From Pseudomonadota bacterium (GTDB lineage: Bacteria > Pseudomonadota > Alphaproteobacteria > RF32 > CAG-239), in assembly GCA_030536665.1 (NCBI GenBank), contig JAUNPO010000001.1:5336-57054 (forward strand): a DNA stretch of 51,719 bases, given 5' to 3'. This document shows positions 3,115 to 37,118 of this stretch, in pieces (position 1 is the stretch's first letter; each line of letters starts with the position of its first letter). Both the position numbers and the translations under genes were made by a program. The notes under the pieces are model-generated. The model was given only the letters and a program-made list of their open reading frames with translations. It did no database searches and was not told the DNA's origin.

Positions 3115-3800
3115 CTCAGCCACAAAGCATTACTGATTTTATTCGCCAAAAATTCCTCATGCGCTTTGATTTCTTCTTCGCTTAAAGGAAAAGGCCGCGG
3201 TTCGCGAAACTGCTTTTTTATTTGAGAAAAGTCAACGGTAGCCGCAAATTGCTGCGTCTTTTTCTCATCGCCGAGCATTGATGGTTCCTGCCCGCCAAGC
3301 AGTTCCAGATATACTTCAGCCAGCAACTGGGCGTCAAGCAAAGCGCCGTGCAGCGTACGGCTGGTATTGTCAACGCCGAAACGGCGACACAAAGCGTCCA
3401 AATTAACCCTTGACCCGGGAAACAAACGCCGCGCAATTTCCAGCGTATCAACAACTCTGTCCCAGGACAATTCATCATATCCCAACCCCTTCAGCTCAAA
3501 ATTGATAAACTTCATATCAAATGAAGCGTTATGAGCCACCAGTTTGGCATCGCCGACAAAATCAAGCCATTCCTTGGCAACATCTTTGAACGTCGGGAAA
3601 TCTTTCAAATAATCATAACTCAGCCCGTGCACTTTAAAAGCGTCTTCGGGAACTTCTCTTTCCGGGTTAATATATTGATGATATTGCACGCCGGTCGGAA
3701 TATGGTTAAGCAGCTCCACCGCGCCGATTTCAACCAGTTTATCCCCCTCTTCCGGATGAAATCCGGTTGTTTCCGTATCAAAAACAATCTCTCTTAACAT
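3111..3800 (-). CDS. dnaQ: DNA polymerase III epsilon subunit (3'-5' exonuclease)
   Basis: Exo motifs are present: VFDTETTG, HNASFDMKF and HGALLDAQLLAEVY. Confidence 0.9.
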   Translation of the reverse strand: MLREIVFDTETTGFHPEEGDKLVEIGAVELLNHIPTGVQYHQYINPEREVPEDAFKVHGLSYDYLKDFPTFKDVAKEWLDFVGDAKLVAHNASFDMKFINFELKGLGYDELSWDRVVDTLEIARRLFPGSRVNLDALCRRFGVDNTSRTLHGALLDAQLLAEVYLELLGGQEPSMLGDEKKTQQFAATVDFSQIKKQFREPRPFPLSEEEIKAHEEFLANKISNALWLS

Positions 3801-4378
3801 TGCTTAATCCTGTCAATCACATAAACCAGTTCCGCCCGCAGGACATTACATGGTTTATCCGTATCAATCACAACATCCGCCAGCATTTTCTTATATTTAT
3901 TATCCATTTGCACAATATTGATTTTTTCAAAATCTTCAGCGGAAACTTTGTCTCGTTCCATCACCCGCCGTTTCTGAATTTCATAATCAACATCGGCAAC
4001 GATAATATAATCGCAATACCTGTGCCACCCCATTTCAAAAAGCAAAGCCACATCCAAAAACAACAAAGCGTCAGTTCTGGCATTCTTAAGGATTAACTCG
4101 CGCAGCTTCATCTTCAAGAACGGGTGAATCAACCCCTCAAGCTTTTTTAACTCTTCATTGTTATCAAAAACAATCTGGCGCAGCTTTCTTTTGTTAACTC
4201 TTCCCGATTCCATAACCGACGGAAAATTCTCCCCGATTACCTTAATAAAAGCTTTTTTGTTATACAGTCTTCTGACCCAGCCGTCGACATCATAGACAGG
4301 ATAACCCAAAGATTTTACTTCTTTGGCCAAGGTCGTTTTTCCACATCCGATAGACCCGGTAATAGCTGCTAATTTCAT
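3794..4378 (-). CDS. coaE: Dephospho-CoA kinase
   Basis: MKLAAITGSIGCGKTT P-loop at the N-terminus. I prefer the ATG at 4378 to the ORF-track start at 4417, which would run into a DnaA box. Confidence 0.85.
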   Translation of the reverse strand: MKLAAITGSIGCGKTTLAKEVKSLGYPVYDVDGWVRRLYNKKAFIKVIGENFPSVMESGRVNKRKLRQIVFDNNEELKKLEGLIHPFLKMKLRELILKNARTDALLFLDVALLFEMGWHRYCDYIIVADVDYEIQKRRVMERDKVSAEDFEKINIVQMDNKYKKMLADVVIDTDKPCNVLRAELVYVIDRIKQC

Positions 4379-4409
4379 TATTTTTTCCTTTAAACAAAGG
4401 CTTACAGAG

Positions 4410-4418
4410 TTATGCACA
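4410..4418 (+). promoter_or_regulatory. DnaA box TTATGCACA
   Basis: Matches the consensus TTATNCACA. Confidence 0.5.
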
Positions 4419-4432
4419 AAACCTGTTGATTC

Positions 4433-4441
4433 TGTGTATAA
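4433..4441 (-). promoter_or_regulatory. DnaA box TTATACACA (minus strand)
   Basis: The plus strand reads TGTGTATAA, and its reverse complement matches TTATNCACA. Confidence 0.5.
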
Positions 4442-21108: not shown

Positions 21109-21527
21109 TGAACATCCATACGACATGTATCGCCTTCAACGGCCGGGGCGTTTTGATTTTCGGAGCGCCGGGATCGGGAAAATCTGATTTGGCATTGCGT
21201 TGTATTGCCAATAAAAATGCGATTCTTGTTGCTGACGACAGAACCAATATTGATATCAGGGAAGGGCGTATTATCGCTTCCTGTCCGGCGAATATCAAAG
21301 GTCTACTGGAAGTCCGCGGCGTCGGCATTCATAAAATGCATTCGCTGGAGTTTTGCGAAATAAAACTGGCGGTGGAACTGGTGAAAAGTTATAAAGATAT
21401 GGAACGCCTGCCGGAACCGGCATTCTATGAAATCGGCGGGATAAAAATTCCTCTGTTGAAACTTTATCCTTTTGAGGTTTCTGCACCGGACAAGCTTGTT
21501 ATAAAGTTAGACAGTGCTATTGATTAA
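21105..21527 (+). CDS. hprK: HPr kinase/phosphorylase-like protein (short alphaproteobacterial form)
   Basis: P-loop GAPGSGKSDLAL, plus LVADDRT and GLLEVRGVGI. Confidence 0.8.
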   Translation: MMNIHTTCIAFNGRGVLIFGAPGSGKSDLALRCIANKNAILVADDRTNIDIREGRIIASCPANIKGLLEVRGVGIHKMHSLEFCEIKLAVELVKSYKDMERLPEPAFYEIGGIKIPLLKLYPFEVSAPDKLVIKLDSAID

Positions 21528-21584
21528 TTGCCTCTATTGCCTTAATATACAACCAAATTTGTATAGAAAAGGAAACTCATCTCC

Positions 21585-22373
21585 ATGGATAATAAAATTC
21601 AAAATTTCTTACGCGTTTTAGGTAAGCCGCTGGTTGCTTTTTTTATGCGGCTCGGCAGCTTGACGACATTTATCGGGCAGTCCTTATACAATTGTGTAAC
21701 GCCGCCTTTTTATTTTAAGCTGGTTGGCCGTCAGTTTCTTGATATCGGCTTTTATTCTCTGCCGGTTGTCGGCTTGACGACGGTTTTTGCCGGTATGGTT
21801 ATTGCCTTGCAGAGTTACACCGGCTTTGCCCGTTTTGGTGCCGAAAGTGCCGTAGCTTCCGTTGTTTGGATTTCCGTAACCCGCGAGCTGGCGCCAGTGT
21901 TGTCAGGCTTAATGGTTGCCGGGCGTATCGGTGCGGCCATGGCTGCCGAAATCGGAACCATGCGCGTTACCGAACAAATTGACGCTTTGCGCACGCTGTC
22001 GACCAATCCTTTCAAGTATCTGGTTGCGCCGCGTATCATTGCCGGCATTATCGTGTTGCCGATGTTGGTTTTCTTTGGCGATATTATCGGAATTTTCGGC
22101 GGTTATGTCGTCGGCGTTTACAAGCTGGGCTTCAATCCGGCTAACTATATCAATGCGACCGTACAGAATATGGAAGCGCTGGACATCATCTCCAGCTTGG
22201 TCAAAGCGGCGGTTTTTGGTTTTATCATCACATTGATGGGCTGCTATAACGGTTATAAATCCCGCGGCGGCGCTCAGGGCGTTGGTGAAGCAACAACCAA
22301 TGCCGTTGTTTCCGCCTCTATCCTGATTCTGATTTTCAACTATATCATCACCGAACTGTTTTTTACCAAATAG
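21585..22373 (+). CDS. mlaE: Phospholipid ABC transporter permease MlaE
   Basis: 262-aa polytopic protein of the MlaE/YrbE type, followed by its ATPase. Confidence 0.85.
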   Translation: MDNKIQNFLRVLGKPLVAFFMRLGSLTTFIGQSLYNCVTPPFYFKLVGRQFLDIGFYSLPVVGLTTVFAGMVIALQSYTGFARFGAESAVASVVWISVTRELAPVLSGLMVAGRIGAAMAAEIGTMRVTEQIDALRTLSTNPFKYLVAPRIIAGIIVLPMLVFFGDIIGIFGGYVVGVYKLGFNPANYINATVQNMEALDIISSLVKAAVFGFIITLMGCYNGYKSRGGAQGVGEATTNAVVSASILILIFNYIITELFFTK

Positions 22374-22385
22374 GGAGAAGATTAA

Positions 22386-23150
22386 ATGAGCGAAGCAAAA
22401 ATAAAAATCACCAATCTTCACAAAGCTTTTGGTAAAAAAGTTGTTCTTGACGGCGTTGACTTGGAAGTTGAAAAAGGAGAATCTCTGGTTGTTATCGGCG
22501 GTTCCGGAACCGGAAAATCTGTTTTGATAAAATGCGTGCAGGGGCTTTTGCAGCCGGACAGCGGCTCTATCCTCATTGACGGGGAAGAAACTGTCGGTGC
22601 TGATGAAAAGGAACAAAACCGCCTTCATTCCAAAATGGGAATGCTGTTTCAGGGCGGTGCCTTGTTTGACAGTCTGCGCATCTGGGAAAATGTGGCTTTT
22701 GGCCTGATTGAAAACCAGAAGATGCCGAGAAAACAGGCGCGTACCGAAGCTATTCGCATCTTGCGTCAGGTCGGTTTGGCGCCGGATGTTGCCGATTCTT
22801 ATCCGAGCGAGCTTTCCGGCGGTATGCAGAAACGCGTCAGCTTGGCGCGCGCCATTGCCACCAAGCCTGAAATCATCTTTTTTGACGAGCCGACAACCGG
22901 GCTTGACCCGATTATGGCCGACGTCATTAACGATTTGATTATCGAGTCTGCCAAAGGCCTTGGCGCAACGGCTTTAACCATTACCCATGATATGGCTTCG
23001 GCGCGTAAAATTGCGGATAAGATTGCCATGCTTTACAAAGGAAAAATCATTTGGCAGGGAACGGTCAAAGAGCTGGATAAAACCGAAAACGAATATGTAC
23101 GCCAGTTCATTAACGGCAGTTCTCACGGACCGATAAAAGTGGAGATATAA
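22386..23150 (+). CDS. mlaF: Phospholipid ABC transporter ATP-binding protein MlaF
   Basis: Walker A GGSGTGKS, signature LSGGMQKRVSLARA and Walker B IIFFDEPT. Confidence 0.85.
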   Translation: MSEAKIKITNLHKAFGKKVVLDGVDLEVEKGESLVVIGGSGTGKSVLIKCVQGLLQPDSGSILIDGEETVGADEKEQNRLHSKMGMLFQGGALFDSLRIWENVAFGLIENQKMPRKQARTEAIRILRQVGLAPDVADSYPSELSGGMQKRVSLARAIATKPEIIFFDEPTTGLDPIMADVINDLIIESAKGLGATALTITHDMASARKIADKIAMLYKGKIIWQGTVKELDKTENEYVRQFINGSSHGPIKVEI

Positions 23151-23152
23151 TC

Positions 23153-24526
23153 TTGGCTAAAAAAGGGAACGAATTTGTTTGCCAAAGCTGCGGCGCCGTA
23201 TATCCCAAGTGGCAGGGAAAATGCGATGCCTGCGGCGAGTGGAATACGATTGTTGAAGAAAAAGTCGGTGGGGAAGGTTTTTCCAATATCACCCCGAAGA
23301 AAAAAGGCAAAATGATTGATTTCGTTCCTTTATCAGGGGAAGAACGGGCGCTCGACAGAATAAAAACCAATATCAAGGAGCTTGACCGGGTTTCCGGCGG
23401 CGGATTGGTTCCCAGTTCGGTAATTTTGGTCGGCGGCGACCCCGGAATAGGAAAATCGACGCTGTTGCTGCAGGTTTGCGCTAGTATCGCCGGTTCTGCC
23501 GGAAACCCGGAATGTTATTATATTTCCGGGGAGGAAGCGATAGACCAAGTGCGGATTCGCGCTAAAAGGCTGCGTCTTGAACAAACCCCGGTTAAATTAG
23601 CCAGCGCAACGGAAGTCAAAGATATTATCGCCACGCTTGAAAAATCAAATGCCGCGGTGGTTATCATCGATTCGATTCAAACCATGTATCTGGATGAAGT
23701 TGAGTCAACGCCGGGCAGCGTTGCCCAAGTCAGAGCCTGCGCTTATGAATTGATAAAACTGGCCAAACGCAAAGGGTTTGTCTTGTTTTTGGTTGGTCAT
23801 GTCACCAAACAGGGCTCCATTGCCGGGCCGCGCGTTTTGGAACACATGGTTGATACCGTGCTTTACTTTGAGGGCGAACGCGGTCACCATTTCCGTATTT
23901 TAAGAGCGGTAAAAAACCGTTACGGCGCGACGGATGAAATCGGCGTTTTTGAAATGCAGGACCAGGGGCTTGTCGAAGTGGAAAATCCCTCGGCATTGTT
24001 TCTGGCCGAACGGCAGGGAAATATTTCTGGCTCATGCGTCTTTGCCGGAATTGAGGGATCGCGTCCGGTCTTGGTGGAAATTCAGGCCTTAGTCTGCCCA
24101 ACAAGTTATGCCAGTCCCAAAAGGGCGGTCGTTGGTTGGGATTCCAACCGCCTGTCAATGGTCTTGGCTGTTCTGGAAGCGCGTTGCGGTATGAATTTAA
24201 GCTCTCAGGATATTTATTTAAACATTGCCGGCGGCTTAAAGATTTCAGAACCGGCGGCTGATTTGGCCGTGGCCATGGCCGTTATTTCATCAATGACCAA
24301 TAAGCCGCTCCCGGCAGATACGGTCATCTTTGGAGAAATCGGCCTGTCCGGGGAAATCCGTGCCGTCAGCCAGCCTAATTCCCGCTTAAAAGAAGCATAT
24401 AAGCTTGGGTTTAAAAGCGCAATCATGCCGGCAAATCTGGCCGCCAAAGACAAAAAGAATAACCGCGTTGACATCGCCGTCCATGAAATCGGTAATGTCC
24501 AACGCCTTATAAATTGGTTTAATTGA
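23153..24526 (+). CDS. radA: DNA repair protein RadA
   Basis: TTG start. Zinc finger CQSCGAVYPKWQGKCDACGEWNT, P-loop GGDPGIGKST, KNRYG and a Lon-like C-terminus. Confidence 0.93.
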   Translation: MAKKGNEFVCQSCGAVYPKWQGKCDACGEWNTIVEEKVGGEGFSNITPKKKGKMIDFVPLSGEERALDRIKTNIKELDRVSGGGLVPSSVILVGGDPGIGKSTLLLQVCASIAGSAGNPECYYISGEEAIDQVRIRAKRLRLEQTPVKLASATEVKDIIATLEKSNAAVVIIDSIQTMYLDEVESTPGSVAQVRACAYELIKLAKRKGFVLFLVGHVTKQGSIAGPRVLEHMVDTVLYFEGERGHHFRILRAVKNRYGATDEIGVFEMQDQGLVEVENPSALFLAERQGNISGSCVFAGIEGSRPVLVEIQALVCPTSYASPKRAVVGWDSNRLSMVLAVLEARCGMNLSSQDIYLNIAGGLKISEPAADLAVAMAVISSMTNKPLPADTVIFGEIGLSGEIRAVSQPNSRLKEAYKLGFKSAIMPANLAAKDKKNNRVDIAVHEIGNVQRLINWFN

Positions 24527-24536
24527 GGAAACTGCC

Positions 24537-25274
24537 ATGCAGCTTAATAATCTTGACGTTATTATTTTAATCGTTGTTGCCATTTCGGCACTAATCGCCT
24601 TGAGCCGCGGCTTAATGAAAGAAGTCCTGTCCATTGTCGGCTGGGTTTTGGGCTGTGCGGCAATCGTCTATCTTCTGCCGATTCTCAACCCCATTACACA
24701 GATTTACGTCAAAAACGGTACTATGGCCGGAATCCTGACCTCTATCGTTATTTTGATAACTTTTCTGATTTTTTGGATTTTAATGACGGCGCAAGTTGTC
24801 AGCAAGGTTCGTTCCAGCAAATTAAGCAACTTGGATAGAATGCTGGGGCTGTTTTTCGGCATTGTCAGAGCCTGTTTTCTGATTATCCTGCTCAATATCC
24901 TTATCAGTTGGATTGTGCCGAAAGAAAGCCAGTCAGAAGCCTTTCGCGAGTCCCGCTATTTTAATCTTGCCGGTGATTTTGCCGAACCGATTGAAAACCT
25001 CATTCCTAAAGCGACTTTGGATAACATCCGCAGCAAAACGCAAAATTCAGATGTCCTGAAAGAAAAAGATGAAGAAGAGCTTGAAAAGGTTAAAATAGAG
25101 AAAAAGGAAAAAACATCGAAAAAAAGCGATGGTGATGAGCTGTTTGAAAAGCTGGCCAAACCGCGGATAGAGAAAGCCAAGAAAAAGCAGCTTGAAAAGG
25201 CCAAAGAACAGTTTGAGGGATATAATAATAACGAACGCGCCAACCTCGACCGTTTGATAGATAATATCGAGTAA
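24537..25274 (+). CDS. cvpA: CvpA-family membrane protein with a Lys/Glu-rich C-terminal tail
   Basis: Four TM helices of the CvpA type, then a low-complexity tail (KEKDEEELEKVKIEKKEK…). Confidence 0.75.
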   Translation: MQLNNLDVIILIVVAISALIALSRGLMKEVLSIVGWVLGCAAIVYLLPILNPITQIYVKNGTMAGILTSIVILITFLIFWILMTAQVVSKVRSSKLSNLDRMLGLFFGIVRACFLIILLNILISWIVPKESQSEAFRESRYFNLAGDFAEPIENLIPKATLDNIRSKTQNSDVLKEKDEEELEKVKIEKKEKTSKKSDGDELFEKLAKPRIEKAKKKQLEKAKEQFEGYNNNERANLDRLIDNIE

Positions 25275-25280
25275 GCAGTA

Positions 25281-25314
25281 AACATCCCGGAAATTTGTTT
25301 TCCGGGATGTTTTT
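25281..25314 (+). terminator. Intrinsic terminator after cvpA
   Basis: A 13-bp stem (aacatcccggaaa/tttccgggatgtt) is followed by tttt. Confidence 0.75.
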
Positions 25315-25334
25315 AATAAAAATATCAAGTTTGT

Positions 25335-26258
25335 TTAAAATTCTAAAATAGCTCGAACAGTATCATAAACATGAGCTTTTTTATCTTTTGTATCATCACT
25401 GACCATATCGAAATATCCATCAGTATTAGCATCAAAAGTCCATGCCAGAGAAGAGCTTCTTTCTGACGATGACCATATATTTTCATAAATTTCTGGAGAA
25501 CCGCCGAATCCGATTTTTACTCCGCCTAGTTTTTCAATTGTATTATTTACATTAGTAAAATTTTTTGAGTTATTTAGATTATTTAATAGTTCATAAGATG
25601 GTAGACACCATTTTTTATTAGGCGGAGTTCCTTGGGGAGAATAATTATATGCCGCATTAGCTGCTGAAAATCTGGTTCCTTTTTTTACAAGCTTTTCTGT
25701 ATTAGAGCAACTTGCATCAATATTTCTGTCTGAGATACCAGTTTCATATGGAAAACCGGTATCCCATGCAATATCTTTTTCTATATAGCTGATTGACATA
25801 ATATATCCGCCAATTCCTGAAGTATTTACATAAATTACTACGCCTAAAGGCGTTTTGGTCTTATCTATATTATTAGAACAGGAATTATCAGAATAATAGA
25901 TCCAACCAACTTGACAAGCAGGGCGAGAATTTTTCTCGCATTTGCCATTGCTCCATTCATAACCGGAAGCACAGTTACAAGAGGCATATTTATTATTGCA
26001 GGCCTGCCCGGCACCGGAGGAGTAACCAGTTCCTTTGCAATCATATTTAAAACCGCTTTTAAGACAAGTATCGGAGCAGCAGGCAAAAGTATTTCCGAAA
26101 GGACATCTGATGCCTTTTCCGTCAGGACAGGACGTTTCTGTGTAGCCTAGCGAAGCACAATCAGTTGTGGCAACACATTGGGCATTTGTTAAGTTTGGAA
26201 TTAAGGACAGACTCGTCCCCAAGAGTAAAAATTTAAGATTAATATTCATATTGAACAT
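25335..26258 (-). CDS. Secreted Cys-rich protein with a DUF1566-like (Lcl C-terminal-like) domain, paralog B
   Basis: Signal peptide M(FNM)NINLKFLLLGTSLSLIPNLTNA|QC, then a Cys-rich segment. The body contains KKWCLPSYELLNNL and the C-terminus is …VRAILEF. The second ATG at 26249 has the better Shine-Dalgarno spacing. Confidence 0.65.
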   Translation of the reverse strand: MFNMNINLKFLLLGTSLSLIPNLTNAQCVATTDCASLGYTETSCPDGKGIRCPFGNTFACCSDTCLKSGFKYDCKGTGYSSGAGQACNNKYASCNCASGYEWSNGKCEKNSRPACQVGWIYYSDNSCSNNIDKTKTPLGVVIYVNTSGIGGYIMSISYIEKDIAWDTGFPYETGISDRNIDASCSNTEKLVKKGTRFSAANAAYNYSPQGTPPNKKWCLPSYELLNNLNNSKNFTNVNNTIEKLGGVKIGFGGSPEIYENIWSSSERSSSLAWTFDANTDGYFDMVSDDTKDKKAHVYDTVRAILEF

Positions 26259-26496
26259 CCTTTGTTTTTTTTAGGTTAAAACAAAACCCGCTTCAATTAA
26301 GAAGGCGGGCGGATGTTCAGAAACCGTAACTTAGTAAACGGCTCGGCTTATTTGGCCGAAACCTTATTCGCCGACATCCGTCCCTAGCACATACCTAGAC
26401 AGATATCAGCACATACTTATTTTAAGTCGCAATCATGCTTGACGACTACTAAGTTTAAAGGGTTTCTGACGCCCTGAGCAGTTAACACAACTGCCT
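26259..26496 (-). ncRNA. Candidate structured 5' leader / riboswitch-like RNA, copy B
   Basis: It aligns with 36070-36293 on the opposite strand. Its hairpins covary with copy A. It ends in an intrinsic terminator (26278-26309) about 20-30 nt before the start codon. Confidence 0.55.
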
Positions 26497-26502
26497 GTAA
26501 AC

Positions 26503-26531
26503 AGAGTAACACAGGAGGATGTTTGTTGCAA
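26503..26531 (-). promoter_or_regulatory. Putative promoter of leader copy B (TTGCAA-N17-TACTCT)
   Basis: It has the same architecture and position as TTGCTA-N17-TACCCT in copy A. Confidence 0.45.
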
Positions 26532-26557
26532 TCTTTTATTTTTTTAGGACAAAAGCT

Positions 26558-26589
26558 ATAAAAAACCTCCCAAATCATTTTTGGGAGGG
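26558..26589 (-). terminator. Intrinsic terminator after the DUF1796-like gene
   Basis: On the minus strand, ccctcccaaaaatgatttgggagg is followed by tttttt. Confidence 0.7.
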
Positions 26590-26595
26590 AAAATA

Positions 26596-27369
26596 TTAGT
26601 TATTGTCGAATTGCTGCGTTGAAATTTGTAATTTCTTGCGAATGGATTTTCTGACTTTTTTTATCGGAATCAAGCAGCACAAGGCGTTGACAACAGTGCG
26701 TTTGACGGCAAAAAGCTTTTTATGCAGCAGTGTTTTGGCCAAATCTTTTTGTGACGAAAGCTTTCGGTCTTTCAAAATCGTTTTAAATTCTTCTTTTTTA
26801 TCAGAATAAAGATCTTTTTTATTGTCAAATTCCAAGCGGACAAAGGTAACGTTTTTATTTAATTCTTTTATTTCCATACCCTTGTAGTCAGCTTTCATAT
26901 CAACGACAATAACGTCAATATTTTTTCCCGGAAATCTCTGTTGCAGAAGTTTCTGCGCTTCAACGGCATCTTCTTCCCGAACCGGCTCGTTGCTGGTGTT
27001 CATGAAAAGGACGTTTTTGGCGCTCTCAACATATTCATAAACGCGTTGAATCCGGCGCTCAAACATCGCTTTGGCTTTTTTGCAAGCTTCGTCAAACGGC
27101 AGATCTTTTTCAACGCAATGATAAAACAAATAATGCTCAGGGTACTGCGTATAAGGAAGGTGGTTGCCGTTTTCTCCCTCAACCCGTTTCAGCTGTTCGG
27201 CGATAAAATAATTCTTAAATCCGTTGGCAACCAAAGTTGCCGGAATTGTAACATTATCAAAACCAACCCAGTCAAACGGATATGATTCCAATTGCAGATT
27301 GTTATGACGCAAATGGAAAGAAGCGGAACAAAAATTCCCGAGGGGAATGGCAACGTCATATTTTCTCAT
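26596..27369 (-). CDS. DUF1796-like (putative papain-like peptidase fold) protein with a basic C-terminal IPxKKxRK tail
   Basis: The N-terminus reads IPLGNFCSASFHLR…SYPFDWVG, as I recall for DUF1796. The C-terminus is CCLIPIKKVRKSIRKKL. Confidence 0.45.
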   Translation of the reverse strand: MRKYDVAIPLGNFCSASFHLRHNNLQLESYPFDWVGFDNVTIPATLVANGFKNYFIAEQLKRVEGENGNHLPYTQYPEHYLFYHCVEKDLPFDEACKKAKAMFERRIQRVYEYVESAKNVLFMNTSNEPVREEDAVEAQKLLQQRFPGKNIDVIVVDMKADYKGMEIKELNKNVTFVRLEFDNKKDLYSDKKEEFKTILKDRKLSSQKDLAKTLLHKKLFAVKRTVVNALCCLIPIKKVRKSIRKKLQISTQQFDNN

Positions 27370-27963
27370 TTATAAAACCTTTCTTGAATTTAAAGCCAGC
27401 TGGATAGTGCCTTCATCCATGTAGTCCAGTTCGGCGCCCATCGGGATTCCCTGCGCCAGAGTTGTCACTTTTATATCATAATTTTTCAGTTGTTGTAACA
27501 GATAGTTTGTCGTTATCTGCCCGTCAATGGTCGCCGGCAAAGCCAGGATGATTTCTTTGATATTTTCTTTTTCAATTCTGTTGAAAAGCTTATCAATATT
27601 TAAATCTTCGGCAGAAATACCGTCAAGAGCGGAAAGGATGCCGCCCAAAACATGATACTTGCCCTTAAACATAGAAACGCGCTCCATCGCCCACAAATCG
27701 GCCACATCCTGCACCACGCAGACAACACCGTCTTCCCGGCTCTGAGATGAACAAATAGAGCAGGGGGATTCTGTATCGTAATTTCCGCAGATGTCGCAGG
27801 TCTTTACATTGGCGGCAACCTGCTGCATGGCGTCAATCAGCGGCAAAAACAGCGATTCCCGCTTTTTGAGGAGCTGCAGGACGATTCTGCGGGATGAGCG
27901 TGTTCCCAAAGCCGGCAGCTTTGCCACCAGCTTGACGAGTTTTTCAATATCTTTTCCGGCCAC
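27370..27963 (-). CDS. recR: Recombination protein RecR
   Basis: Zinc finger CDICGNYDTESPCSICS and a Toprim domain. Confidence 0.93.
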   Translation of the reverse strand: MAGKDIEKLVKLVAKLPALGTRSSRRIVLQLLKKRESLFLPLIDAMQQVAANVKTCDICGNYDTESPCSICSSQSREDGVVCVVQDVADLWAMERVSMFKGKYHVLGGILSALDGISAEDLNIDKLFNRIEKENIKEIILALPATIDGQITTNYLLQQLKNYDIKVTTLAQGIPMGAELDYMDEGTIQLALNSRKVL

Positions 27964-27976
27964 GGTTTTTTATCTC

Positions 27977-28315
27977 TTAAAAGGGAAGTTTCAGCCCGGG
28001 AATATTCATACCGCCGGTCGCGTCTTTCATGCCGTCGCTCATCATGGCTTCAACTTTATTTTTGGCATCATTGCTGGCGGCAACGATTAAATCTTCCAAA
28101 ATGTCTGCTTCGTCAGCGACAATAAGCGACTTGTCAAGCTCAACTTTCTTCATTTCAAATTTTCCGCTCATGGTAACTTTTACCATACCGCCGCCGCTGA
28201 CGCCGATAACTTCCTGCTGCGCCAGTTTCTCCTGCATATCTTCCATTTTTTTCTGCATGGCTTGAGCTTGTTTCATGATTCCTTGAATGTTTAACATATT
28301 GTTATTCCTCATCAA
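27977..28315 (-). CDS. ybaB: Nucleoid-associated protein YbaB/EbfC
   Basis: Contains …IMKQAQAMQKKMEDMQEKLAQQEV.GVSGGGMVKVTMSG…. The start may be an internal Met, because the ORF overlaps the dnaX stop. Confidence 0.88.
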   Translation of the reverse strand: MMRNNNMLNIQGIMKQAQAMQKKMEDMQEKLAQQEVIGVSGGGMVKVTMSGKFEMKKVELDKSLIVADEADILEDLIVAASNDAKNKVEAMMSDGMKDATGGMNIPGLKLPF

Positions 28316-30041
28316 AATTTAAATCAGTATAATTAAGTTCATTTTCTTCGCCGCCGAATGAAGATGTTTCGTCATCATCATTTTCCATAATTTTTCGTGT
28401 CAGCGTTTCAATTTTTGCTCCTTTGAATTCCGCCATAATTGCCTTGACCAAAGGATATTCCATAATATTGCGTCTTTCTTCTTCTGTCTTGGCGTTTTCT
28501 TTCTGTGAAATCGTCTGCCCTAAGGAACCTTTTATGATTTCTATCTTCCAGCTTTTCCCGGTTGCTTCTTCCAAAATTTTATGCAGATTGAGAATATAGT
28601 CGGGATTTATTTTCTCTGAAAGCGTTACTTTCATAAACCCGTCTTCAAAATGCTCAACCGACAGGTCGTTTTTAAAAGCATAAAGAACAAGAAGCTTCCG
28701 GCTTTCTTCCAAAAGGCGGATAAAATCATCAACTGTTCTTAAAACCTTAAAGCCGTTAGCCGTATTTTCTTGACCGGAATAAGCGCTTTCCGGCTTTGCC
28801 GCAGGGGAGTTATTTACATCTTGGGGTTGCCTGGCAAACACCGGTAAAGGGCGTTCCTGCCCTAAATTAGAGTTTTTTTTTACGTCGTTTAAAAGTTCAT
28901 ACGGCGTTGGCAGGCTGGCGGCGTAAGCGATTCTGATTAAAATCATCTCCAAGGCGTCAATTTGCAACGGAGCTATTTGCAGCTCGCTGATGCCCTTAAT
29001 CATCATCTGCCAGATTTTGGAGAGAATGGCAATGGAAACGCTCACCGACATCCGTTTGGCAAAATCTTTTTCTTCTTCCGAAACCGCCGGGTCGTCAATA
29101 GAACCGGGAATAATGCGGGTTTTGGCAACCAAGTGGGTGATGTTGATTAAATCCTGTAAAATAGTAACCGGATTGGCGCCGTTCTTATACTGAAGCTGTA
29201 ATAATGTAATAACCTTATCGACATTTCCGGCCACCAGATTTTCAAAAAGTTCAAAATTCTGTGTCCGGTCAGCCAATCCGATCATATTTTTGACAACATC
29301 GACTTTGACATTGCCGACACCGAGCGATATTGCCTGGTCGAGCAAAGACGTGCCGTCACGGGCAGAACCGTCCGCCGCGCGAGCCAAAAGCTGTAATGCT
29401 TCCTCGTCTGCTTTCAGATTTTCAGCACTGATGATTTTATGGAACATTGTCATCAGCTCATCAATCTTCAAGCGCTGCAAATCAAAGCGCTGGCAGCGGG
29501 AGAGAATGGTAACCGGAACTTTGCGGATTTCTGTCGTCGCAAAAATAAATTTAACGTGTGACGGTGGTTCTTCCAGTGTTTTCAGCAAGGCGTTAAACGC
29601 ATTTTTTGACAGCATGTGAACTTCGTCGATGATATAAATTTTATAACGCGCATTGGTCGGTTTATAGCGAACGCCGTCCAAAATTTCCCGGATGTCGTCA
29701 ACGCCGGTGCGTGACGCCGCGTCAAGCTCCATAACATCAATATGCCGGCCGGCAGTAATTGCTTTGCAGTTTTCGCAAACGCCGCAGGGATGAACCGTTG
29801 GGCCGCCTTTGCCATCCAAACCTGTACAGTTAAGCGCCTTGGCGATAATTCTGGCGGTCGAAGTCTTTCCGACGCCGCGGATGCCGGTTAAAATATAAGC
29901 ATGGTGCAGGCGGTTGTTTTTTATGGCATTGGTTAATGTCTGCACCAAAGCATCCTGCCCCAGCAAATCTTCAAAATTTTGCGGGCGGTACTTGCGAGCC
30001 AAAATAACATATTGATTATCTTTGTTTTCTTCTTCTGCCAT
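28302..30041 (-). CDS. dnaX: DNA polymerase III subunit tau (and possibly gamma)
   Basis: AAA+ P-loop GIRGVGKTST, a zinc module CGVCENC and the typical domains I-III. An A9 run sits at codons 387-390. Confidence 0.93.
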   Translation of the reverse strand: MAEEENKDNQYVILARKYRPQNFEDLLGQDALVQTLTNAIKNNRLHHAYILTGIRGVGKTSTARIIAKALNCTGLDGKGGPTVHPCGVCENCKAITAGRHIDVMELDAASRTGVDDIREILDGVRYKPTNARYKIYIIDEVHMLSKNAFNALLKTLEEPPSHVKFIFATTEIRKVPVTILSRCQRFDLQRLKIDELMTMFHKIISAENLKADEEALQLLARAADGSARDGTSLLDQAISLGVGNVKVDVVKNMIGLADRTQNFELFENLVAGNVDKVITLLQLQYKNGANPVTILQDLINITHLVAKTRIIPGSIDDPAVSEEEKDFAKRMSVSVSIAILSKIWQMMIKGISELQIAPLQIDALEMILIRIAYAASLPTPYELLNDVKKNSNLGQERPLPVFARQPQDVNNSPAAKPESAYSGQENTANGFKVLRTVDDFIRLLEESRKLLVLYAFKNDLSVEHFEDGFMKVTLSEKINPDYILNLHKILEEATGKSWKIEIIKGSLGQTISQKENAKTEEERRNIMEYPLVKAIMAEFKGAKIETLTRKIMENDDDETSSFGGEENELNYTDLNFDEE

Positions 30042-30065
30042 AAAACCAATCTTTGAAAAAAAGTG

Positions 30066-30158
30066 AAAAGGCGGAGGAACACTGACCTTAATCGGTTCGT
30101 TACGGCTGCTTTCTTCCGAACCTGACCGGGTTGGCGAAAGATTAACCCAATGCCCTCC
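30066..30158 (-). ncRNA. ffs: Signal recognition particle RNA (4.5S, small type)
   Basis: The minus strand reads GGAGGGCAUUGGGUUAAUCUUUCGCCAACCCGGUCAGGUUCGGAAGAAAGCAGCCGUAACGAACCGAUUAAGGUCAGUGUUCCUCC. It contains the conserved GGUCAGGU.CGGAAG.AAGCAGCC domain IV core, and the 5' and 3' ends pair. It sits in the classical position upstream of dnaX. The ends are approximate. Confidence 0.8.
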
Positions 30159-30164
30159 ATTGAC

Positions 30165-30193
30165 AATATCCCTGAAATCTTATTATTTTTCAA
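30165..30193 (-). promoter_or_regulatory. Putative ffs promoter TTGAAA-N17-GATATT
   Basis: Minus-strand hexamers with a 17-nt spacer. The -10 element ends about 6 nt before the first G of the SRP RNA. Confidence 0.5.
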
Positions 30194-30222
30194 GGAAAAA
30201 ATCAATATTTTACGCGCTATTT

Positions 30223-31737
30223 TTACTGTGGGATAACGACATTCAATTCTTTCAGCGCTTTACGGATAATTTCCATTTCAGAATCTTGCGGAATCTCATA
30301 AACCGGCTGGTTTTCAGCCTCCAAAACCCGACCATAAATGGCAATTTGCGCCGCTTCGGTATTCTTGCCGAATATTTGCGGAGCTTTATAGTCCGGCGTA
30401 ACATAAACGCTGTTGCCGCTGAAGCCGTATTCCGGAGCCGTATTGAATTTACGGGGAGCCGGACTGACGACTTTGTCGCCGTTTTCCGTAATTTCAACAA
30501 TATCCAAACTATGCTCGTTCGTGCCGTTTGCAAATAAGCGGAAAACGCCGTTAATGCCGATATAGCCTTCCGGAGCCGTAATGGCGCCGTTCAGGTTTTC
30601 ATTGCCTTTCTTGGACAGGGAGGCGGCCAGCGCCACGGCGTCATAAGCCAAAGAATAAAGGCTGTGTGGTTTTTCGCCGAACATTTCGCTGTACTTGTTG
30701 GCAAAATAAGCGCTGTGTGAACGGGACAATGCCGGATACCATGCGCCCGCCGCCATTGTTTCTTTGCTTAAATCCGTATTTTCCCAAATGGCTGTTCCCA
30801 AAAATTTAACTTTGGGGGCATAAACGTCATAATAACCGAACATTGAAAAGGCGGACTTCAACCGGGAACCGGATTCGGGAATAATAACCGCGTCAAAATC
30901 AACATCGCCGAGCGCCTGGATTCTTTCCAGTCTTTTCAAAGCCCTTTTGGCGTTCATATTGCCTTTGTTGGCCTGAGCCGTCAACGAACTCCTGATTCTT
31001 TTCAGACGGTTGCTGCGAATGTCATAATCCGTCAGGTTTTTGACCGGATCGGCAAAGTTTGTGGTGTTAGCCGGATAAAAGGAAATTTTGCTGATGCTGG
31101 CGCCGTTTTGCTGAGCGGCGTTAACCGCTGCCCGGGCGATGGCGATACCTGTCTGGTTGTCCGGCAAAAGCAGTGCAAAACGGGAACGTTTCTGGCTGGC
31201 GGCATAACTGATAATGCGGTTAACCTGTTCGTCAACCAGCAGCCCTAAAGTATAAACCTGAGGCTCCAAAACGCTTTCGTTGGTAGAAAATGCAATAACC
31301 GGAATATCCTTATATGTTGTTTCGTCTTTAATCGCGTTGACGGAAGAGCTCATTAACGGGCCGATAATCAGGCTGGCATTTTGGGCAATGGCGTTTTCAA
31401 CGGCAACTCTTGCGCCGCTGGCCGTACTCTGCGTATCGTAAAACTGCAGAATAAGGTTATCGTTCTGCACATCATCCAAAGCCATCAGCGCGGCATTTTT
31501 CAAGCCCAGGCCGTATTTAGATGCTTCGCCGCTCAACGGCAAAAGCATACCGACGCGAAAATTTCCGTCATTAATGACATCGCGGTTAATCAGATTAATG
31601 CTGTCATAGGAATTTAAATTCTCGTACATAACTGCCGTGTCATATCCGGTAATTGCCGGAGCTGTCCGGGTTGAGCTGCTGCAGCCGGCCAAAATAAAAG
31701 CGGCAAAAAGAAAAACATATTTTTTTAACACTTGCAT
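30223..31737 (-). CDS. Lipoprotein with a type-1 periplasmic-binding fold (LppC/LpoA-like penicillin-binding-protein activator)
   Basis: Lipobox FILAGC|SSS. It is 504 aa and divergent from rsmI, as LppC/LpoA genes are in many proteobacteria. Confidence 0.55.
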   Translation of the reverse strand: MQVLKKYVFLFAAFILAGCSSSTRTAPAITGYDTAVMYENLNSYDSINLINRDVINDGNFRVGMLLPLSGEASKYGLGLKNAALMALDDVQNDNLILQFYDTQSTASGARVAVENAIAQNASLIIGPLMSSSVNAIKDETTYKDIPVIAFSTNESVLEPQVYTLGLLVDEQVNRIISYAASQKRSRFALLLPDNQTGIAIARAAVNAAQQNGASISKISFYPANTTNFADPVKNLTDYDIRSNRLKRIRSSLTAQANKGNMNAKRALKRLERIQALGDVDFDAVIIPESGSRLKSAFSMFGYYDVYAPKVKFLGTAIWENTDLSKETMAAGAWYPALSRSHSAYFANKYSEMFGEKPHSLYSLAYDAVALAASLSKKGNENLNGAITAPEGYIGINGVFRLFANGTNEHSLDIVEITENGDKVVSPAPRKFNTAPEYGFSGNSVYVTPDYKAPQIFGKNTEAAQIAIYGRVLEAENQPVYEIPQDSEMEIIRKALKELNVVIPQ

Positions 31738-31814
31738 TTTTCCTTAAAAAACATCATTCTGATAAGCGTATATTACAGATTTAGAATAAAAAATACGGAT
31801 TGTAAAGAATAAAC

Positions 31815-32654
31815 ATGAAAAGCGGATTATACATTGTTGCCACGCCAATCGGAAATCTGGGAGATATTTCTCCCCGCGCTGTTGAAACGTTAAGCGAAGC
31901 GGACGTCATAGCCTGCGAGGATACCAGAATAAGCAAAAAACTGTTGTCTTTGCTGGGTGTCAGCCTGAACAAAACTTTTCTGACATTGCACGACCATAAC
32001 GAAAGCGAACGGTTGCAGCAGATAATCTCATTGATAACGGAAGAGGGAAAAAGCATTGCCCTGATTAGCGATGCCGGATCTCCGCTGATTTCCGACCCGG
32101 GTTATAAGCTGATTCGCGAATGCCGCCGCCATGGCGTTGCCGTCACAACGCTGCCTGGCTGCTGCGCTTTAATTTGCGCTTTGCAGCTGTCTGGTTTGCC
32201 GACTAACCGCTTTATGTTTGCCGGTTTTATCCCGAATAAAGATAAAGCCCGGGCGGAAACTTTTTCTTCGGTAAAAGATATTGATGCGACCATTGTTTTT
32301 TATGAAACCGCCAACCGCATTGTCAAGACATTGGCTGTTGCCGCAGAGGTCTTTGGCGGCAGGGAACTGGCCGTTGCCCGCGAAATTACCAAAATGTATG
32401 AAGAATGTTTGAACGGAACCGCCGAAGAATTGATAGAACATTTTTCCAAACAGGAACCGCGCGGCGAAATGGTTTTAATGATTTCTCCGCCGGACAAAAC
32501 TGAAAAAATTTCTGAAACGGACGTTGAAGCCCTGCTGCGCGAGAAGCTGAAAAACATGAGTGTCAAGTCTGCGGTAAGGGATTTGGTCGATAGCTGCGGC
32601 CTGAATAAAAACGATGTATATGAACTGGCTTTGAAGATTAAAAATGAACAATAA
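31815..32654 (+). CDS. rsmI: 16S rRNA (cytidine1402-2'-O)-methyltransferase RsmI
   Basis: LYIVATPIGNLGDIS…CEDTR… tetrapyrrole-methylase fold. Confidence 0.9.
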   Translation: MKSGLYIVATPIGNLGDISPRAVETLSEADVIACEDTRISKKLLSLLGVSLNKTFLTLHDHNESERLQQIISLITEEGKSIALISDAGSPLISDPGYKLIRECRRHGVAVTTLPGCCALICALQLSGLPTNRFMFAGFIPNKDKARAETFSSVKDIDATIVFYETANRIVKTLAVAAEVFGGRELAVAREITKMYEECLNGTAEELIEHFSKQEPRGEMVLMISPPDKTEKISETDVEALLREKLKNMSVKSAVRDLVDSCGLNKNDVYELALKIKNEQ

Positions 32655-32994
32655 TCTTTCCGGACATCTGGCAGAATTTTTGGCACGGCAGCTGTTTCGC
32701 CTCAAGGGCTACCGGATTGTCTGCAAAAATTATGTAACGGGAAGGGGAACGTCTGCCGGAGAAATTGATTTTATTGCCGTTCGCTTCAAAACTATTGTCT
32801 TTGTCGAGGTGAAAAAACGCCGGGATAAAGAAACGGCGGCTTATGCCGTCAAGCCGGCTCAACAGAAACGCATTCGTACCGCTGCTGAAAACTTTTTAGC
32901 CAAACATTCTGCTTACCGGGATTATGATGTCCGCTTTGATGCCGTTTTGGTTTGTTTTCCCCGTTACTTCCGGCACATTCAAAATGCCTTTTAG
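32644..32994 (+). CDS. yraN: YraN-family (UPF0102) endonuclease-like protein
   Basis: Contains GEIDFIA……VFVEVKKR. It follows rsmI. Confidence 0.8.
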   Translation: MNNNLSGHLAEFLARQLFRLKGYRIVCKNYVTGRGTSAGEIDFIAVRFKTIVFVEVKKRRDKETAAYAVKPAQQKRIRTAAENFLAKHSAYRDYDVRFDAVLVCFPRYFRHIQNAF

Positions 32995-36033: not shown

Positions 36034-36062
36034 TTGCTAAAATAACACCCCTGTGCTACCCT
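36034..36062 (+). promoter_or_regulatory. Putative promoter of leader copy A (TTGCTA-N17-TACCCT)
   Basis: It is conserved in position and architecture with copy B. Confidence 0.45.
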
Positions 36063-36069
36063 TTATTTT

Positions 36070-36293
36070 AAGCGGCAGAGTTTGCCGCCGAGGGCGTCGA
36101 AACCCTTTGTTCTTAGCGGTCGTCAAGCATAATTGCGACTTTAAATAAGTATATGCTGATATCTGTCCATGTGCTAGAGGCGGATGTCAGCGTTATAAGG
36201 CTTTGCACGAAAGCGCTGAGCCGTTTGCTAAGACACGGTTTCGAACATCCGCCCGCCTTTAAAAGCGGGTTTTGTTTTAACTGGAAACAAAGG
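36070..36293 (+). ncRNA. Candidate structured 5' leader / riboswitch-like RNA, copy A
   Basis: It shows several hairpins that covary with copy B. The first is gcggca-gagtt-tgccgc at 36072-36088. A long-range pairing joins ggcggatgt at 36179-36187 with acatccgcc at 36245-36253. A third pairing is tcagcg/cgctga. A terminator (cccgc…gcggg+ttttgtttt) lies at 36252-36278. The ORF-track extension from 36153 overlaps it and is probably not translated. Confidence 0.55.
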
Positions 36294-37118
36294 ATGTTCA
36301 ACATGAATATTAATCTTAAATTTCTACTCTTAGAAACAACACTGTCTTTAATTCCAAATTTCTTATATGCACAATGTTCACCGGCTCAAAATTGTGCTGA
36401 ACTCGGCTATATAGAAACTTCCAATAAAGGCGGCTGTTTGAAATGTCCGTTTGGTAATGGATGGTATTGCCCAGATTCCAAAGAAGAAAAAGCTATACTC
36501 GGCGAGTGTAGCGGCTATGCTAAAAACTGTAAAATCGGCGATATCCTTAACAGCGATGGTACTTGTACAACGGATAAAGCAAGTGGTAAGACACCGATAG
36601 GGGTGGTCATTGCCGTCAAAGACGATTGTGGTTGGGCTATAACGGCAAATCCGGTTGCGCAGGGTACACCTTGGTCAACTAAGCCTAATTATACAGTGTT
36701 GCCTATAAATTCCGGAAATATAGCAAATGTGTACGATAATTGTGAATATACAAAAATCATCACCGCTGAGGGTAACAATAACGAATTTCCTGCAGCATGG
36801 GCTGCAATAAACTATGCGCCGACAGCCGCGCCGGAAACCAAAGGAAAATGGTGTCTTCCTGCTCCGGGAATAATGAATGATTTATTTCCGTACCTCAATG
36901 AGGTTAACAATGCAATAGCAAAACTAAGCGGAACGGTTCTCACGGCTCAAATAGGCCCGGAATCATATGTAGACAGAAATGAACACCTCTGGTTATCTGT
37001 TGAGGGCGATAATCTGAACGCTTATTATTTTTGCGCAGCCTGTCCAACGTTTATTAGCAATACAGCCAAGAAGAACTATCTTACGACATTTACGGTGCGC
37101 CCGGTACTGGCCTTTTAA
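36294..37118 (+). CDS. Secreted Cys-rich protein with a DUF1566-like domain, paralog A
   Basis: Signal peptide M(FNM)NINLKFLLLETTLSLIPNFLYA|QC. The body contains GKWCLPAPGIMNDL and the C-terminus is …VRPVLAF. An alternative start is at 36303. Confidence 0.65.
   Translation: MFNMNINLKFLLLETTLSLIPNFLYAQCSPAQNCAELGYIETSNKGGCLKCPFGNGWYCPDSKEEKAILGECSGYAKNCKIGDILNSDGTCTTDKASGKTPIGVVIAVKDDCGWAITANPVAQGTPWSTKPNYTVLPINSGNIANVYDNCEYTKIITAEGNNNEFPAAWAAINYAPTAAPETKGKWCLPAPGIMNDLFPYLNEVNNAIAKLSGTVLTAQIGPESYVDRNEHLWLSVEGDNLNAYYFCAACPTFISNTAKKNYLTTFTVRPVLAF

Follow-up and report, generated by a model that had tools for sequence, protein, structure and literature searches.

Aptamer domains of riboswitches usually have a variable, covarying closing helix around near-invariant junctions and loops, and the multi-copy cyclic-dinucleotide riboswitches GEMM-I and GEMM-II control surface and adhesion genes. 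Classical attenuators, for example the trp and pyr leaders or those that depend on a protein or a tRNA, switch between a terminator, an antiterminator and an anti-antiterminator. Xanthomonas campestris has an 88-nt small RNA (sRNA) named sRNA-Xcc1 (PMC2996969), located within an integron cassette upstream of symE (bioRxiv 10.1101/2025.06.18.660453), and proteins of the DUF1566 type, for example Legionella LdtA, are a recognised category of targets of diversity-generating retroelements (PMC5758913). Here we analysed a stretch of 51,719 nt (hereafter the window) from contig JAUNPO010000001.1 of the 'Pseudomonadota bacterium' assembly GCA_030536665.1, which carries two copies, A and B, of a promoter and a leader of about 210 nt in front of paralogous genes for secreted proteins. 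The leader length was counted from the inferred transcription start through the end of the U-tract of an intrinsic terminator. Judged from sequence comparison, the leader is a genuine, new, multi-copy structured RNA with the architecture of a switch. We consider it probable that it is a previously uncatalogued cis-acting regulatory RNA of uncultured human-gut alphaproteobacteria, transcribed from its own promoter and off by default until an effector acts.

Copy A (36034-36302, plus strand) and copy B (26250-26531, minus strand) extend from the −35 box to the ATG. As an earlier note on this DNA had seen by eye, the two align throughout, with a mean column identity of 85%, and the proteins encoded behind them are only 34% identical, save for a nearly identical signal peptide. 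When folded, copies A and B gave z values of −5.9 and −6.5 relative to dinucleotide shuffles, and none of 200 shuffles was as good. Pattern scans and look-ups brought together 39 non-redundant leader copies. Covariation was assessed on 36–39 non-redundant leaders of this type (type I; alignment A3), and the statistics of the long-range helices were counted on a MAFFT alignment. The promoter hexamers were kept in most of the 39 copies and, like the loops and junctions, were nearly invariant, whereas the promoter spacer, the DNA further upstream and the sequences of the helices were randomised between copies. Recent duplication alone thus does not account for the conservation, which reflects constraint.

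The earlier note had staked its reading on covariation in alignments of homologues, and this was decisively present, so that the conserved promoter and the structured, covarying leader that it had read on the sense strand hold across the copies. The three compensated positions that it had pointed out in the 5′-terminal hairpin H1 (GCGGCA-GAGTT-TGCCGC in A and GCAGTT-GTGTT-AACTGC in B) recurred over 36 copies as G-C in 30 and A-U in 6, as C-G in 31 and U-A in 4, and as A-U in 29, C-G in 3 and U-A in 1. The swap between tcagcg/cgctga and tcggc/gccga that it had also noticed lies in the closing helix of the P2 element (P2c) and was a true exchange of A-U for G-C that is general among the 36 copies (A-U in 20, G-C in 8 and G-U in 8; C-G in 28 and U-A in 5). 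Its account did not include two long-range helices, α and β, a hairpin of 13–14 bp (gctgatatctgtc:ggcggatgtcagc), and the masking of the Shine-Dalgarno (SD) sequence by gaacatcc.

Helix α is formed by a strand between GGGCG and CCC and a strand, α′, between GG and ACAUCC. There were 11 haplotypes of α, including length variants, and α was the exact reverse complement of α′ in 38 of the 39 copies. Helix β joins a second upstream strand to the loop of the P3 hairpin. Each of its 28 haplotypes formed 8–10 contiguous base pairs with its own β′, compared to a mean of 4.1 bp with non-cognate partners, and the mean duplex energy was −8.8 kcal/mol for cognate and −0.8 kcal/mol for non-cognate pairs; all seven counted pairs of β showed changes on both sides. 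When α and β were taken together, 95.3% of the alignment cells formed a standard pair (70.4% in shuffles), 128 cells had changes on both sides (40 in shuffles), and the covariation score was 0.63 (0.16 in shuffles), and in each case none of 500 shuffles reached the observed value. The score dropped to 0.09 or less when the 3′ partners were slid by one to three columns.

The remaining helices varied in a similarly ordered way. In P3, a purine-pyrimidine pair was G-C in 26 copies and A-U in 13 with no exception. The intrinsic terminator proposed earlier was recovered by a separate scan at 36251-36270, followed by TTTGTTTTAA, and was present in all 39 copies with energies from −7.6 to −12.5 kcal/mol and at least three types of compensated stem (CCCGC/GCGGG, UCCUCC/GGAGGA and CCCAC/GUGGG). 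The 13–14-bp hairpin, which we named PA, pairs the strands γ and γ′. It had 14 pairs with 99.8% of the cells paired, of which eight were invariant, five had wobble-compatible changes on one side and one was U-A in 22, U-G in 9 and C-G in 5 copies; folded as a hairpin, it had an energy of −18.9 kcal/mol in copy A. The RNA was assigned to the sense strand of the gene because of invariant G·U pairs at alignment columns 119:151, 123:147 and 185:206. Overall, covariation or complementarity backs H1, the helices α and β that enclose a conserved core (the H2 hairpin, an A-rich linker, γ and γ′, P2 and P3), the terminator and an 8-bp helix that masks the SD.

Three further pairings were considered, of which two were dropped. 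A local hairpin between the A-rich linker and γ (AGUAUAU/AUAUCU) lost its pairing in variants, as judged by eye, and the variants of a GNRA-type refolding of the P2 tip were not compensatory, unlike those of P2c. An extra antiterminator between GGGCG (36092-36096) and CGCCC (36250-36254) is complementary, but GGGCG is invariant and several partner variants mismatch, so it was kept as a possibility only.

The minimum free energy (MFE) folds of the copies and the RNAalifold consensus agreed on one 'off' fold, which contains H1, α, β, H2, PA and the 8-bp masking helix between a strand named δ and the SD region. In copy A, GAACAUCC (36243-36250) of δ pairs with the SD region at 36292-36299, and both the MFE fold and the consensus paired 36245-36250 with 36292-36297. 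The masking helix forms the base of a three-way junction whose two other arms are the terminator hairpin and a hairpin of the U-tract with AAACAAA. However, the P2 closing helix was compensated even though it uses the last four bases of γ′, and P3 was compensated although some of its bases belong to α in the consensus. Selection therefore acts on more than one fold. The variation of γ′ was limited to changes compatible with both the invariant γ and the covarying 3′ strand of P2, which is as expected of a strand with two partners.

The strand δ is also complementary to γ′ (ggcggatgt:acatccgcc), which contains an internal SD mimic, GGCGGAUGU, sequestered by the invariant upstream strand. The mean duplex energies were −19.1 kcal/mol for γ:γ′, −16.1 kcal/mol for γ′:δ and −12.1 kcal/mol for δ with the SD region, with −8.0 kcal/mol for γ′ and a shuffled δ as a control. 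By complementarity there is a cascade of exclusive pairings in which γ pairs with γ′, γ′ with δ, and δ, which overlaps the terminator, with the SD. The earlier note had read ggcggatgt:acatccgcc as the helix that closes the domain. The pairing is present in copy A and its 2-nt overlap with the terminator stem was correct, but copy B has an A·C mismatch and there was no covariation of its own over 36 copies; α and β close the domain instead. The pairing looks more like the arm of an antiterminator or anti-sequestor and crosses α, which would give a pseudoknot if both form.

The strands of the long-range helices may also be presented locally. The GGG and CCC that flank α could form a hairpin with α in its loop, and P3 with β′ in its loop together with this GGG:CCC hairpin may form a double loop-strand pseudoknot or alternate with one extended duplex. 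In a terminator scan, the GGG-α-CCC hairpin followed by UUUGUU (36090-36107, plus strand) was flagged as terminator-like; transcription might pause or terminate early at this element, or it may be just the hairpin that presents α.

In the mechanism that we propose, γ:γ′ would form first during transcription, since it is local and strongest. The strand δ would then be free and the terminator would form, and any read-through mRNA would have a masked ribosome-binding site, leaving the gene off. A trans-acting effector, which may be a small ligand, a protein or a small RNA, would recognise the invariant core and free γ′. The freed γ′ would capture δ, remove the base of the terminator stem and unmask the SD, turning the gene on. 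Capture of δ would weaken termination because the last bases of δ are the bottom of the terminator stem beside the U-tract, and the long-range helices would hold δ next to the core and make the exchange possible. The riboswitch or attenuator architecture suggested by the earlier note stood as far as it is switch-like, with the closing helix revised and with a riboswitch as one option among the effector types.

A second leader type bears on this model. Type II leaders (about 190 nt, of unrelated sequence) were found at three loci in front of a subfamily of genes starting MKLKFLL (L002:2808-3003, L089:980-1203 and L090:960-1203). Their 5′ part follows the type I order, with H1 (loop GCGUU compared to GAGUU in type I, keeping GNGUU), GGUGU-α-ACACC and β. 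There follow a central hairpin UCCACUC-NUG-GAGUGGA, a small hairpin with a stem compensated in three ways, CUG[β′]CAG and α′. The strand GCUCCACUCUCC has two complements, the 3′ arm of the central hairpin (−16.7 kcal/mol) and the SD, and the 3′ end consists of a terminator, UUUGUUUU and the ribosome-binding site. In all three loci α and β were different yet perfectly compensated. The relation between γ, γ′ and δ, the α-presenting hairpin and the β′-presenting hairpin have survived a full change of sequence, and this is the best evidence for a functional three-way competition. Further leader types may exist.

Several observations weigh against a default-off switch, and they concern its promoter, its fold and its distribution. 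Promoter A was absent from a simple consensus promoter scan, so the promoter rests on its conservation. In type I leaders the γ′:δ helix showed no compensatory change, with the inner 6 bp invariant and the second outermost pair unpaired in 20 of 36 copies, and its support from type I alone is weak. A nested fold in which γ′:δ was forced was about 20 kcal/mol worse than the off fold; part of this gap arises because the folding program cannot combine α and β with a crossing helix. Because the off fold is so far ahead, a strong or co-transcriptional effector would be needed for switching. Moreover, P3 conflicts with the inner pairs of α, and P2 with PA, and the real topology may be nested or pseudoknotted. 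A search for the complement of γ (GACAGATATCAGC) found only the leaders themselves in the collected loci, which are part of a genome. Finally, all copies come from one narrow lineage, and recombination among paralogues may contribute to the pattern, such that some of the conservation may be homogenisation.

The latter point arose from a comparison of orthologous loci. The copy B locus (26250-26531) is orthologous to L017:6333-6601 and L051:5676-5943, with flanks that are 94% identical. At these three loci the promoter, H1 and the terminator look orthologous, whereas there is no agreement at all in α, β, P2 type or P3 pair. This suggests that the leaders are mosaics that have swapped segments among paralogues, or that the helices turn over very fast. 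If segments are exchanged among leaders, the perfect complementarity of α and β in each copy is more telling, not less.

Copies of the leader were narrowly distributed. An exact-pattern scan of metagenome contigs with the H2 hairpin gave 28 loci. A scan of 185,579 species-representative genomes with another conserved stretch found genuine copies in a single genome, 'uncultured Azospirillum sp. isolate UMGS63', where there are at least 24 (24 distinct full copies and two truncated ones). Other matches of the genome scan, including those in Enterococcus cecorum, Psychrobacter, Nostoc and Paenalcaligenes, were due to chance, as nhmmer found no leader there. Window positions 21295-32846 are syntenic with UMGS63 and one metagenome contig at 94% identity, and the window is therefore from the same species as UMGS63 or a sister species. 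Each copy with downstream sequence had a gene of the same family at a fixed distance, starting M(N/S)INFKFLLLGTSLSLIPN..AQC. Among the collected loci the leader was present at 52 of 81 matches to family genes, and some paralogues lack it. The leader copies sit among housekeeping genes, fused to family genes, with neither an integron nor symE nearby. The features of copies A and B are collected in Table 1.

Table 1. Positions of the leader features and downstream genes in the window
Feature	Position	Strand	Description
Promoter A	36034-36062	+	−35 TTGCTA 36034-36039; 17-nt variable spacer; TGc and −10 TACCCT 36057-36062
Transcription start A (inferred)	~36069-36071	+	
H1, 5′-terminal hairpin	36072-36088	+	GCGGCA-GAGUU-UGCCGC; 3 of 6 pairs changed on both sides; 99.5% of cells paired
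GGG(CG)-α-CCC	36092-36105	+	α, UCGAAACC, 36097-36104; 5′ strand of long-range helix α
β	36110-36117	+	UUCUUAGC; 5′ strand of long-range helix β
H2 hairpin	36119-36139	+	GUCG-U-CAA GCAUAA UUG CGAC; four pairs invariant, one C-G in 23, U-G in 7, U-A in 3
A-rich single-stranded linker	36140-36154	+	UUUAAAUAAGUAUAU; nearly invariant in alignment A3; no partner found
PA hairpin	36155-36191	+	γ, GCUGAUAUCUGUC, 36155-36167; loop (A)UGUGCUAGR 36168-36178; γ′, GGCGGAUGUCAGC, 36179-36191, contains SD mimic GGAUGU and the P2 5′ strand
P2	36188-36218	+	Closing helix CAGC:GCUG and distal hairpin; 2 of 4 closing pairs compensated; 36188-36191 common to P2 and PA, mutually exclusive there
P3 hairpin	36219-36240	+	AGCCG...CGGUU; loop holds β′ GCUAAGA 36227-36233
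α′	36237-36244	+	GGUUUCGA; 3′ strand of helix α; 4-nt overlap with P3 3′ strand
δ	36243-36253	+	GAACAUCCGCC; partner SD region or γ′; last 2 nt are first 2 nt of terminator stem
Terminator	36252-36278	+	CCCGC...GCGGG 36252-36269; UUUUGUUUU 36270-36278
Pre-start region	36285-36305	+	AAACAAA (pairs with U-tract); SD region GGAUGUUC 36292-36299; ATG 36303-36305
Gene A	36303-37118	+	Secreted Cys-rich protein, 271 aa; DUF1566/Lcl-like (C-type-lectin-like) C-terminal domain
Copy B, whole set	26250-26531	−	Promoter: −35 box 26526-26531; −10 box 26503-26508
Copy B, 5′ part		−	H1 26478-26494; α 26461-26469; β 26448-26455; H2 26426-26446
Copy B, core		−	γ 26398-26410; γ′ 26370-26382; P2 26344-26373; P3 26322-26343
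Copy B, 3′ part		−	α′ 26317-26325; δ 26308-26318; terminator 26287-26309; U-tract 26278-26286; SD region 26253-26260
Gene B	25335-26249	−	Paralogue of gene A, 304 aa, same family

The effector could be of several kinds, and one sub-case of the proposed switch is a new class of riboswitch for a metabolite or second messenger, with the core closed by α and β as its aptamer. We regard this as possible. The near-invariant junctions and loops lie inside a closing helix that varies and covaries, the expression platform overlaps the terminator as well as the SD, and the many copies per genome before surface or secreted proteins resemble the arrangement of cyclic-dinucleotide riboswitches. In contrast, the leader matches no known class, its distribution is very narrow with a single species representative, and it is unusual for metabolite riboswitches to be tied to just one gene family. 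None of the regulated genes has a role in metabolism or transport, and the off state is thermodynamically far ahead.

The agreement of the MFE and consensus folds may also suggest a static structured 5′ untranslated region that does not switch and, for the whole family, determines how stable the mRNA is or how it is processed, or holds termination and translation at a constant low level. H1, α, β, H2, the inner part of PA and the terminator are indeed compatible in that one nested fold, and γ′:δ did not covary. However, P2c and P3 are compensated yet incompatible with the consensus fold, a permanent terminator together with a masked SD would silence at least 24 intact genes, and the γ/γ′/δ triple was kept in type II despite the unrelated sequence. 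We therefore find a static leader unlikely.

A promoter recognised by its conservation and a good terminator, both in front of the gene, would also fit an independent sRNA of about 210 nt expressed from two dozen loci as a trans regulator or sponge, with the downstream gene transcribed by leak-through only. The invariant single-stranded segments and the sub-threshold resemblance to sRNA-Xcc1 point the same way. Yet the leader was always at a fixed distance from a family gene, δ is complementary to the SD of that gene, no free-standing copy was seen, and a copy reduced to its 5′ third still precedes a family gene. Such an sRNA is quite unlikely as the whole explanation, and a function in trans would be compatible with a role in cis.

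An RNA thermometer, in which the masking helix melts at host temperature, would suit a gut organism whose SD is held in a helix of 8 bp with many A-U and G-U pairs. We consider it very doubtful, as the roughly 150 nt of conserved upstream core and the long-range helices would be superfluous, the masking helix closes a stable three-way junction, and there was no match to ROSE, fourU or other thermometers in Rfam. The last alternative, a DNA repeat homogenised by gene conversion or a coding region or leader peptide, draws on the mosaic orthologous loci, which indicate recombination among copies, and on an open reading frame (ORF) that spans copy A, and it is effectively refuted by compensatory changes in at least six helices with conserved and variable positions interleaved, by the strand-specific G·U pairs, and by indels that are not multiples of three in a region where no reading frame is conserved. 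Of 36 copies, only copy A itself had the upstream ATG (36153 in copy A) in frame and open, and the distance from this codon to the true ATG ran through all values of 150–163 nt other than 151, in all three phases, which confirms the earlier suspicion that the N-terminal ORF extension is spurious.

The proteins behind the leader belong to a family with 553 unnamed relatives in the database, all from gut metagenome assemblies labelled 'Pseudomonadota bacterium'. Protein A had no Pfam match, and a sequence search of the PDB was also empty. An AlphaFold2 model (predicted local distance difference test, pLDDT, 82) had as its best fold matches in the PDB the C-terminal domain of Legionella Lcl (8q4e; E value 6e-5, TM-score 0.60 normalised on the target), in support of the earlier description as DUF1566-like, and the Bacteroides fimbrial protein 4eps. 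Weaker fold matches were to EgtB/FGE, TvpA and C-type lectins. The C-terminal block ...AW.F...VRPVLAF of the family aligned with template repeats of a retroelement, and the family thus has both a C-type-lectin/DUF1566 fold and a C-terminal variable region.

The retroelement, at L061:249-3920 on the UMGS63 contig UQAB01000026.1, is a diversity-generating retroelement (DGR) of unusual layout. It has a bAvd gene (249-620), a reverse transcriptase gene (2586-3920) with IGNLTSQ and YVDD motifs and, at 722-2510, seven tandem units of about 270 bp, each with an Asn/AAC-rich template repeat (TR) of 125-158 nt and a spacer; a helix-turn-helix gene lies on the opposite strand at 3917-4177. The literature searched contained no account of several template repeats arranged in tandem. 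In one leader-bearing gene (L035; leader 4181-4441, minus strand), the C-terminal ~134 nt differed from TR0 with 16 of 17 mismatches at template adenines, and in a second family gene (L009:3001-3801) the corresponding ~134 nt differed from TR2 with 17 of 19 mismatches at template adenines. These two genes appear to carry bona fide variable regions of the retroelement. Compared to the seven template repeats of UMGS63, which is another genome than that of the window, genes A and B had 36 and 48 non-adenine mismatches, and most other paralogues likewise had many non-adenine differences.

More tentatively than the riboswitch reading itself, we suggest that the leader may be a new ligand-sensing class of riboswitch, for instance for a second messenger or host signal, with a pseudoknotted aptamer closed by the two long-range helices, that gates the whole retroelement-diversified, lectin-like repertoire at once. 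If true, hypermutated receptors would be displayed only upon a given signal. In a bolder version, the copy-specific 'barcodes' of α and β tune or individualise the threshold of each copy. To our knowledge, the regulation of hypervariable repertoires in bacteria is largely unknown, and the literature searched described no conserved structured leader in front of the target genes of retroelements. A diversified receptor family with more than 24 paralogues per genome, some of them rewritten by a retroelement, would here be under common control after initiation. The unusually clean covariation of this large orphan cis-regulatory RNA makes it a ready candidate for the search for a ligand or other effector, and the paralogue-rich alignment with its 28 β haplotypes offers direct designs for swap and compensation experiments from an uncultured human-gut lineage.

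Some loci departed from the common arrangement. At L024:7217-7485 the leader is split in the β′/P3 region by a 268-bp insertion with terminal inverted repeats of about 32 bp (TTAGACCTAAAATATCCCTTTACAG...), which looks like a miniature inverted-repeat element; no second copy of it was found among the collected loci. At L086:1018-1203 the leader has decayed. The promoter, H1, α and a β/H2-like stretch remain (about 90 nt), and AT-rich sequence with a different ribosome-binding site replaces the rest in front of an intact 306-aa family gene. In another lineage (L009:1583-4866), the family gene P0109 lies without a leader in an operon-like run of unannotated genes, 8 nt from the preceding gene, and the family can therefore be expressed without the leader. 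Upstream of copy B, a strong terminator-like hairpin (CCTCCCAAAAATGATTTGGGAGG followed by TTTTTT; 26566-26588, minus strand) ends the DUF1796 gene before the promoter, and the copy B leader therefore opens a fresh transcription unit. The other genes of the window are ordinary alphaproteobacterial housekeeping genes, including dnaX with DUF3646, recR, radA, ialB, rlmN, dnaK/dnaJ and mnmG. Between dnaX and a gene for a periplasmic binding protein lies the small RNA of the bacterial signal recognition particle (SRP) (30067-30161, minus strand; RF00169, 65.8 bits).

When compared to Rfam in gathering mode, the window gave this SRP RNA as its only match, and neither leader copy belonged to a known class; the earlier note had likewise matched the element to no known riboswitch class. 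In E-value mode, both copies and ten loci gave only sub-threshold matches to sRNA-Xcc1 and noise, and the T-box, PyrR and Trp/Thr leader families did not match above noise. With a gathering threshold of 53 bits, sRNA-Xcc1 (RF02221) scored only 26.7 and 35.0 bits in the window and about 26 bits in two other copies; the rest of the copies searched gave nothing above the reporting limit. The model aligned end to end with 36178-36262 (26299-26383 in copy B), from γ′ through P2 and P3 to δ. Shared features are the 9-bp closing stem, P2 with A-rich internal loops, P3 (GCCGU...ACGGU), a J3/1 junction UUnGA, a C-rich 3′ tail and a gene of the same orientation close downstream. In this three-way junction P2 and P3 covary, whereas the closing stem, which is γ′:δ, does not. 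The leader is also 2.5 times larger, α and β have no counterpart in the model, and there is neither an integron cassette nor symE. This is a resemblance and not membership, which fails on score, size and context.

With riboswitches of the GEMM-I/II type the leader shares a covarying closing helix around invariant junctions, a platform with a terminator and SD masking, and many copies before extracellular proteins. It has the conserved, covarying domain and the overlap of sensor and expression platform that are generic to riboswitches, as δ overlaps the terminator by 2 nt and complements the SD. Unlike those riboswitches, it has no riboswitch match in Rfam and occurs in a single lineage before a single gene family. 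Like known DGR targets of the DUF1566/CLec2 type such as LdtA, the downstream family has the Lcl/DUF1566 fold and at least two members with mismatches almost confined to template adenines; it differs in being preceded by a leader, and genes A and B do not match the available template repeats as current targets. As in classical attenuators, there are three successive exclusive helices, γ:γ′, γ′:δ and δ with the terminator, with energies that step down, and a G+C-rich hairpin and U-tract stand before the gene in predicted competition with an alternative helix. The leader differs from these attenuators in having no conserved leader peptide and in the masking of the SD, which would add translational control to the control of termination.

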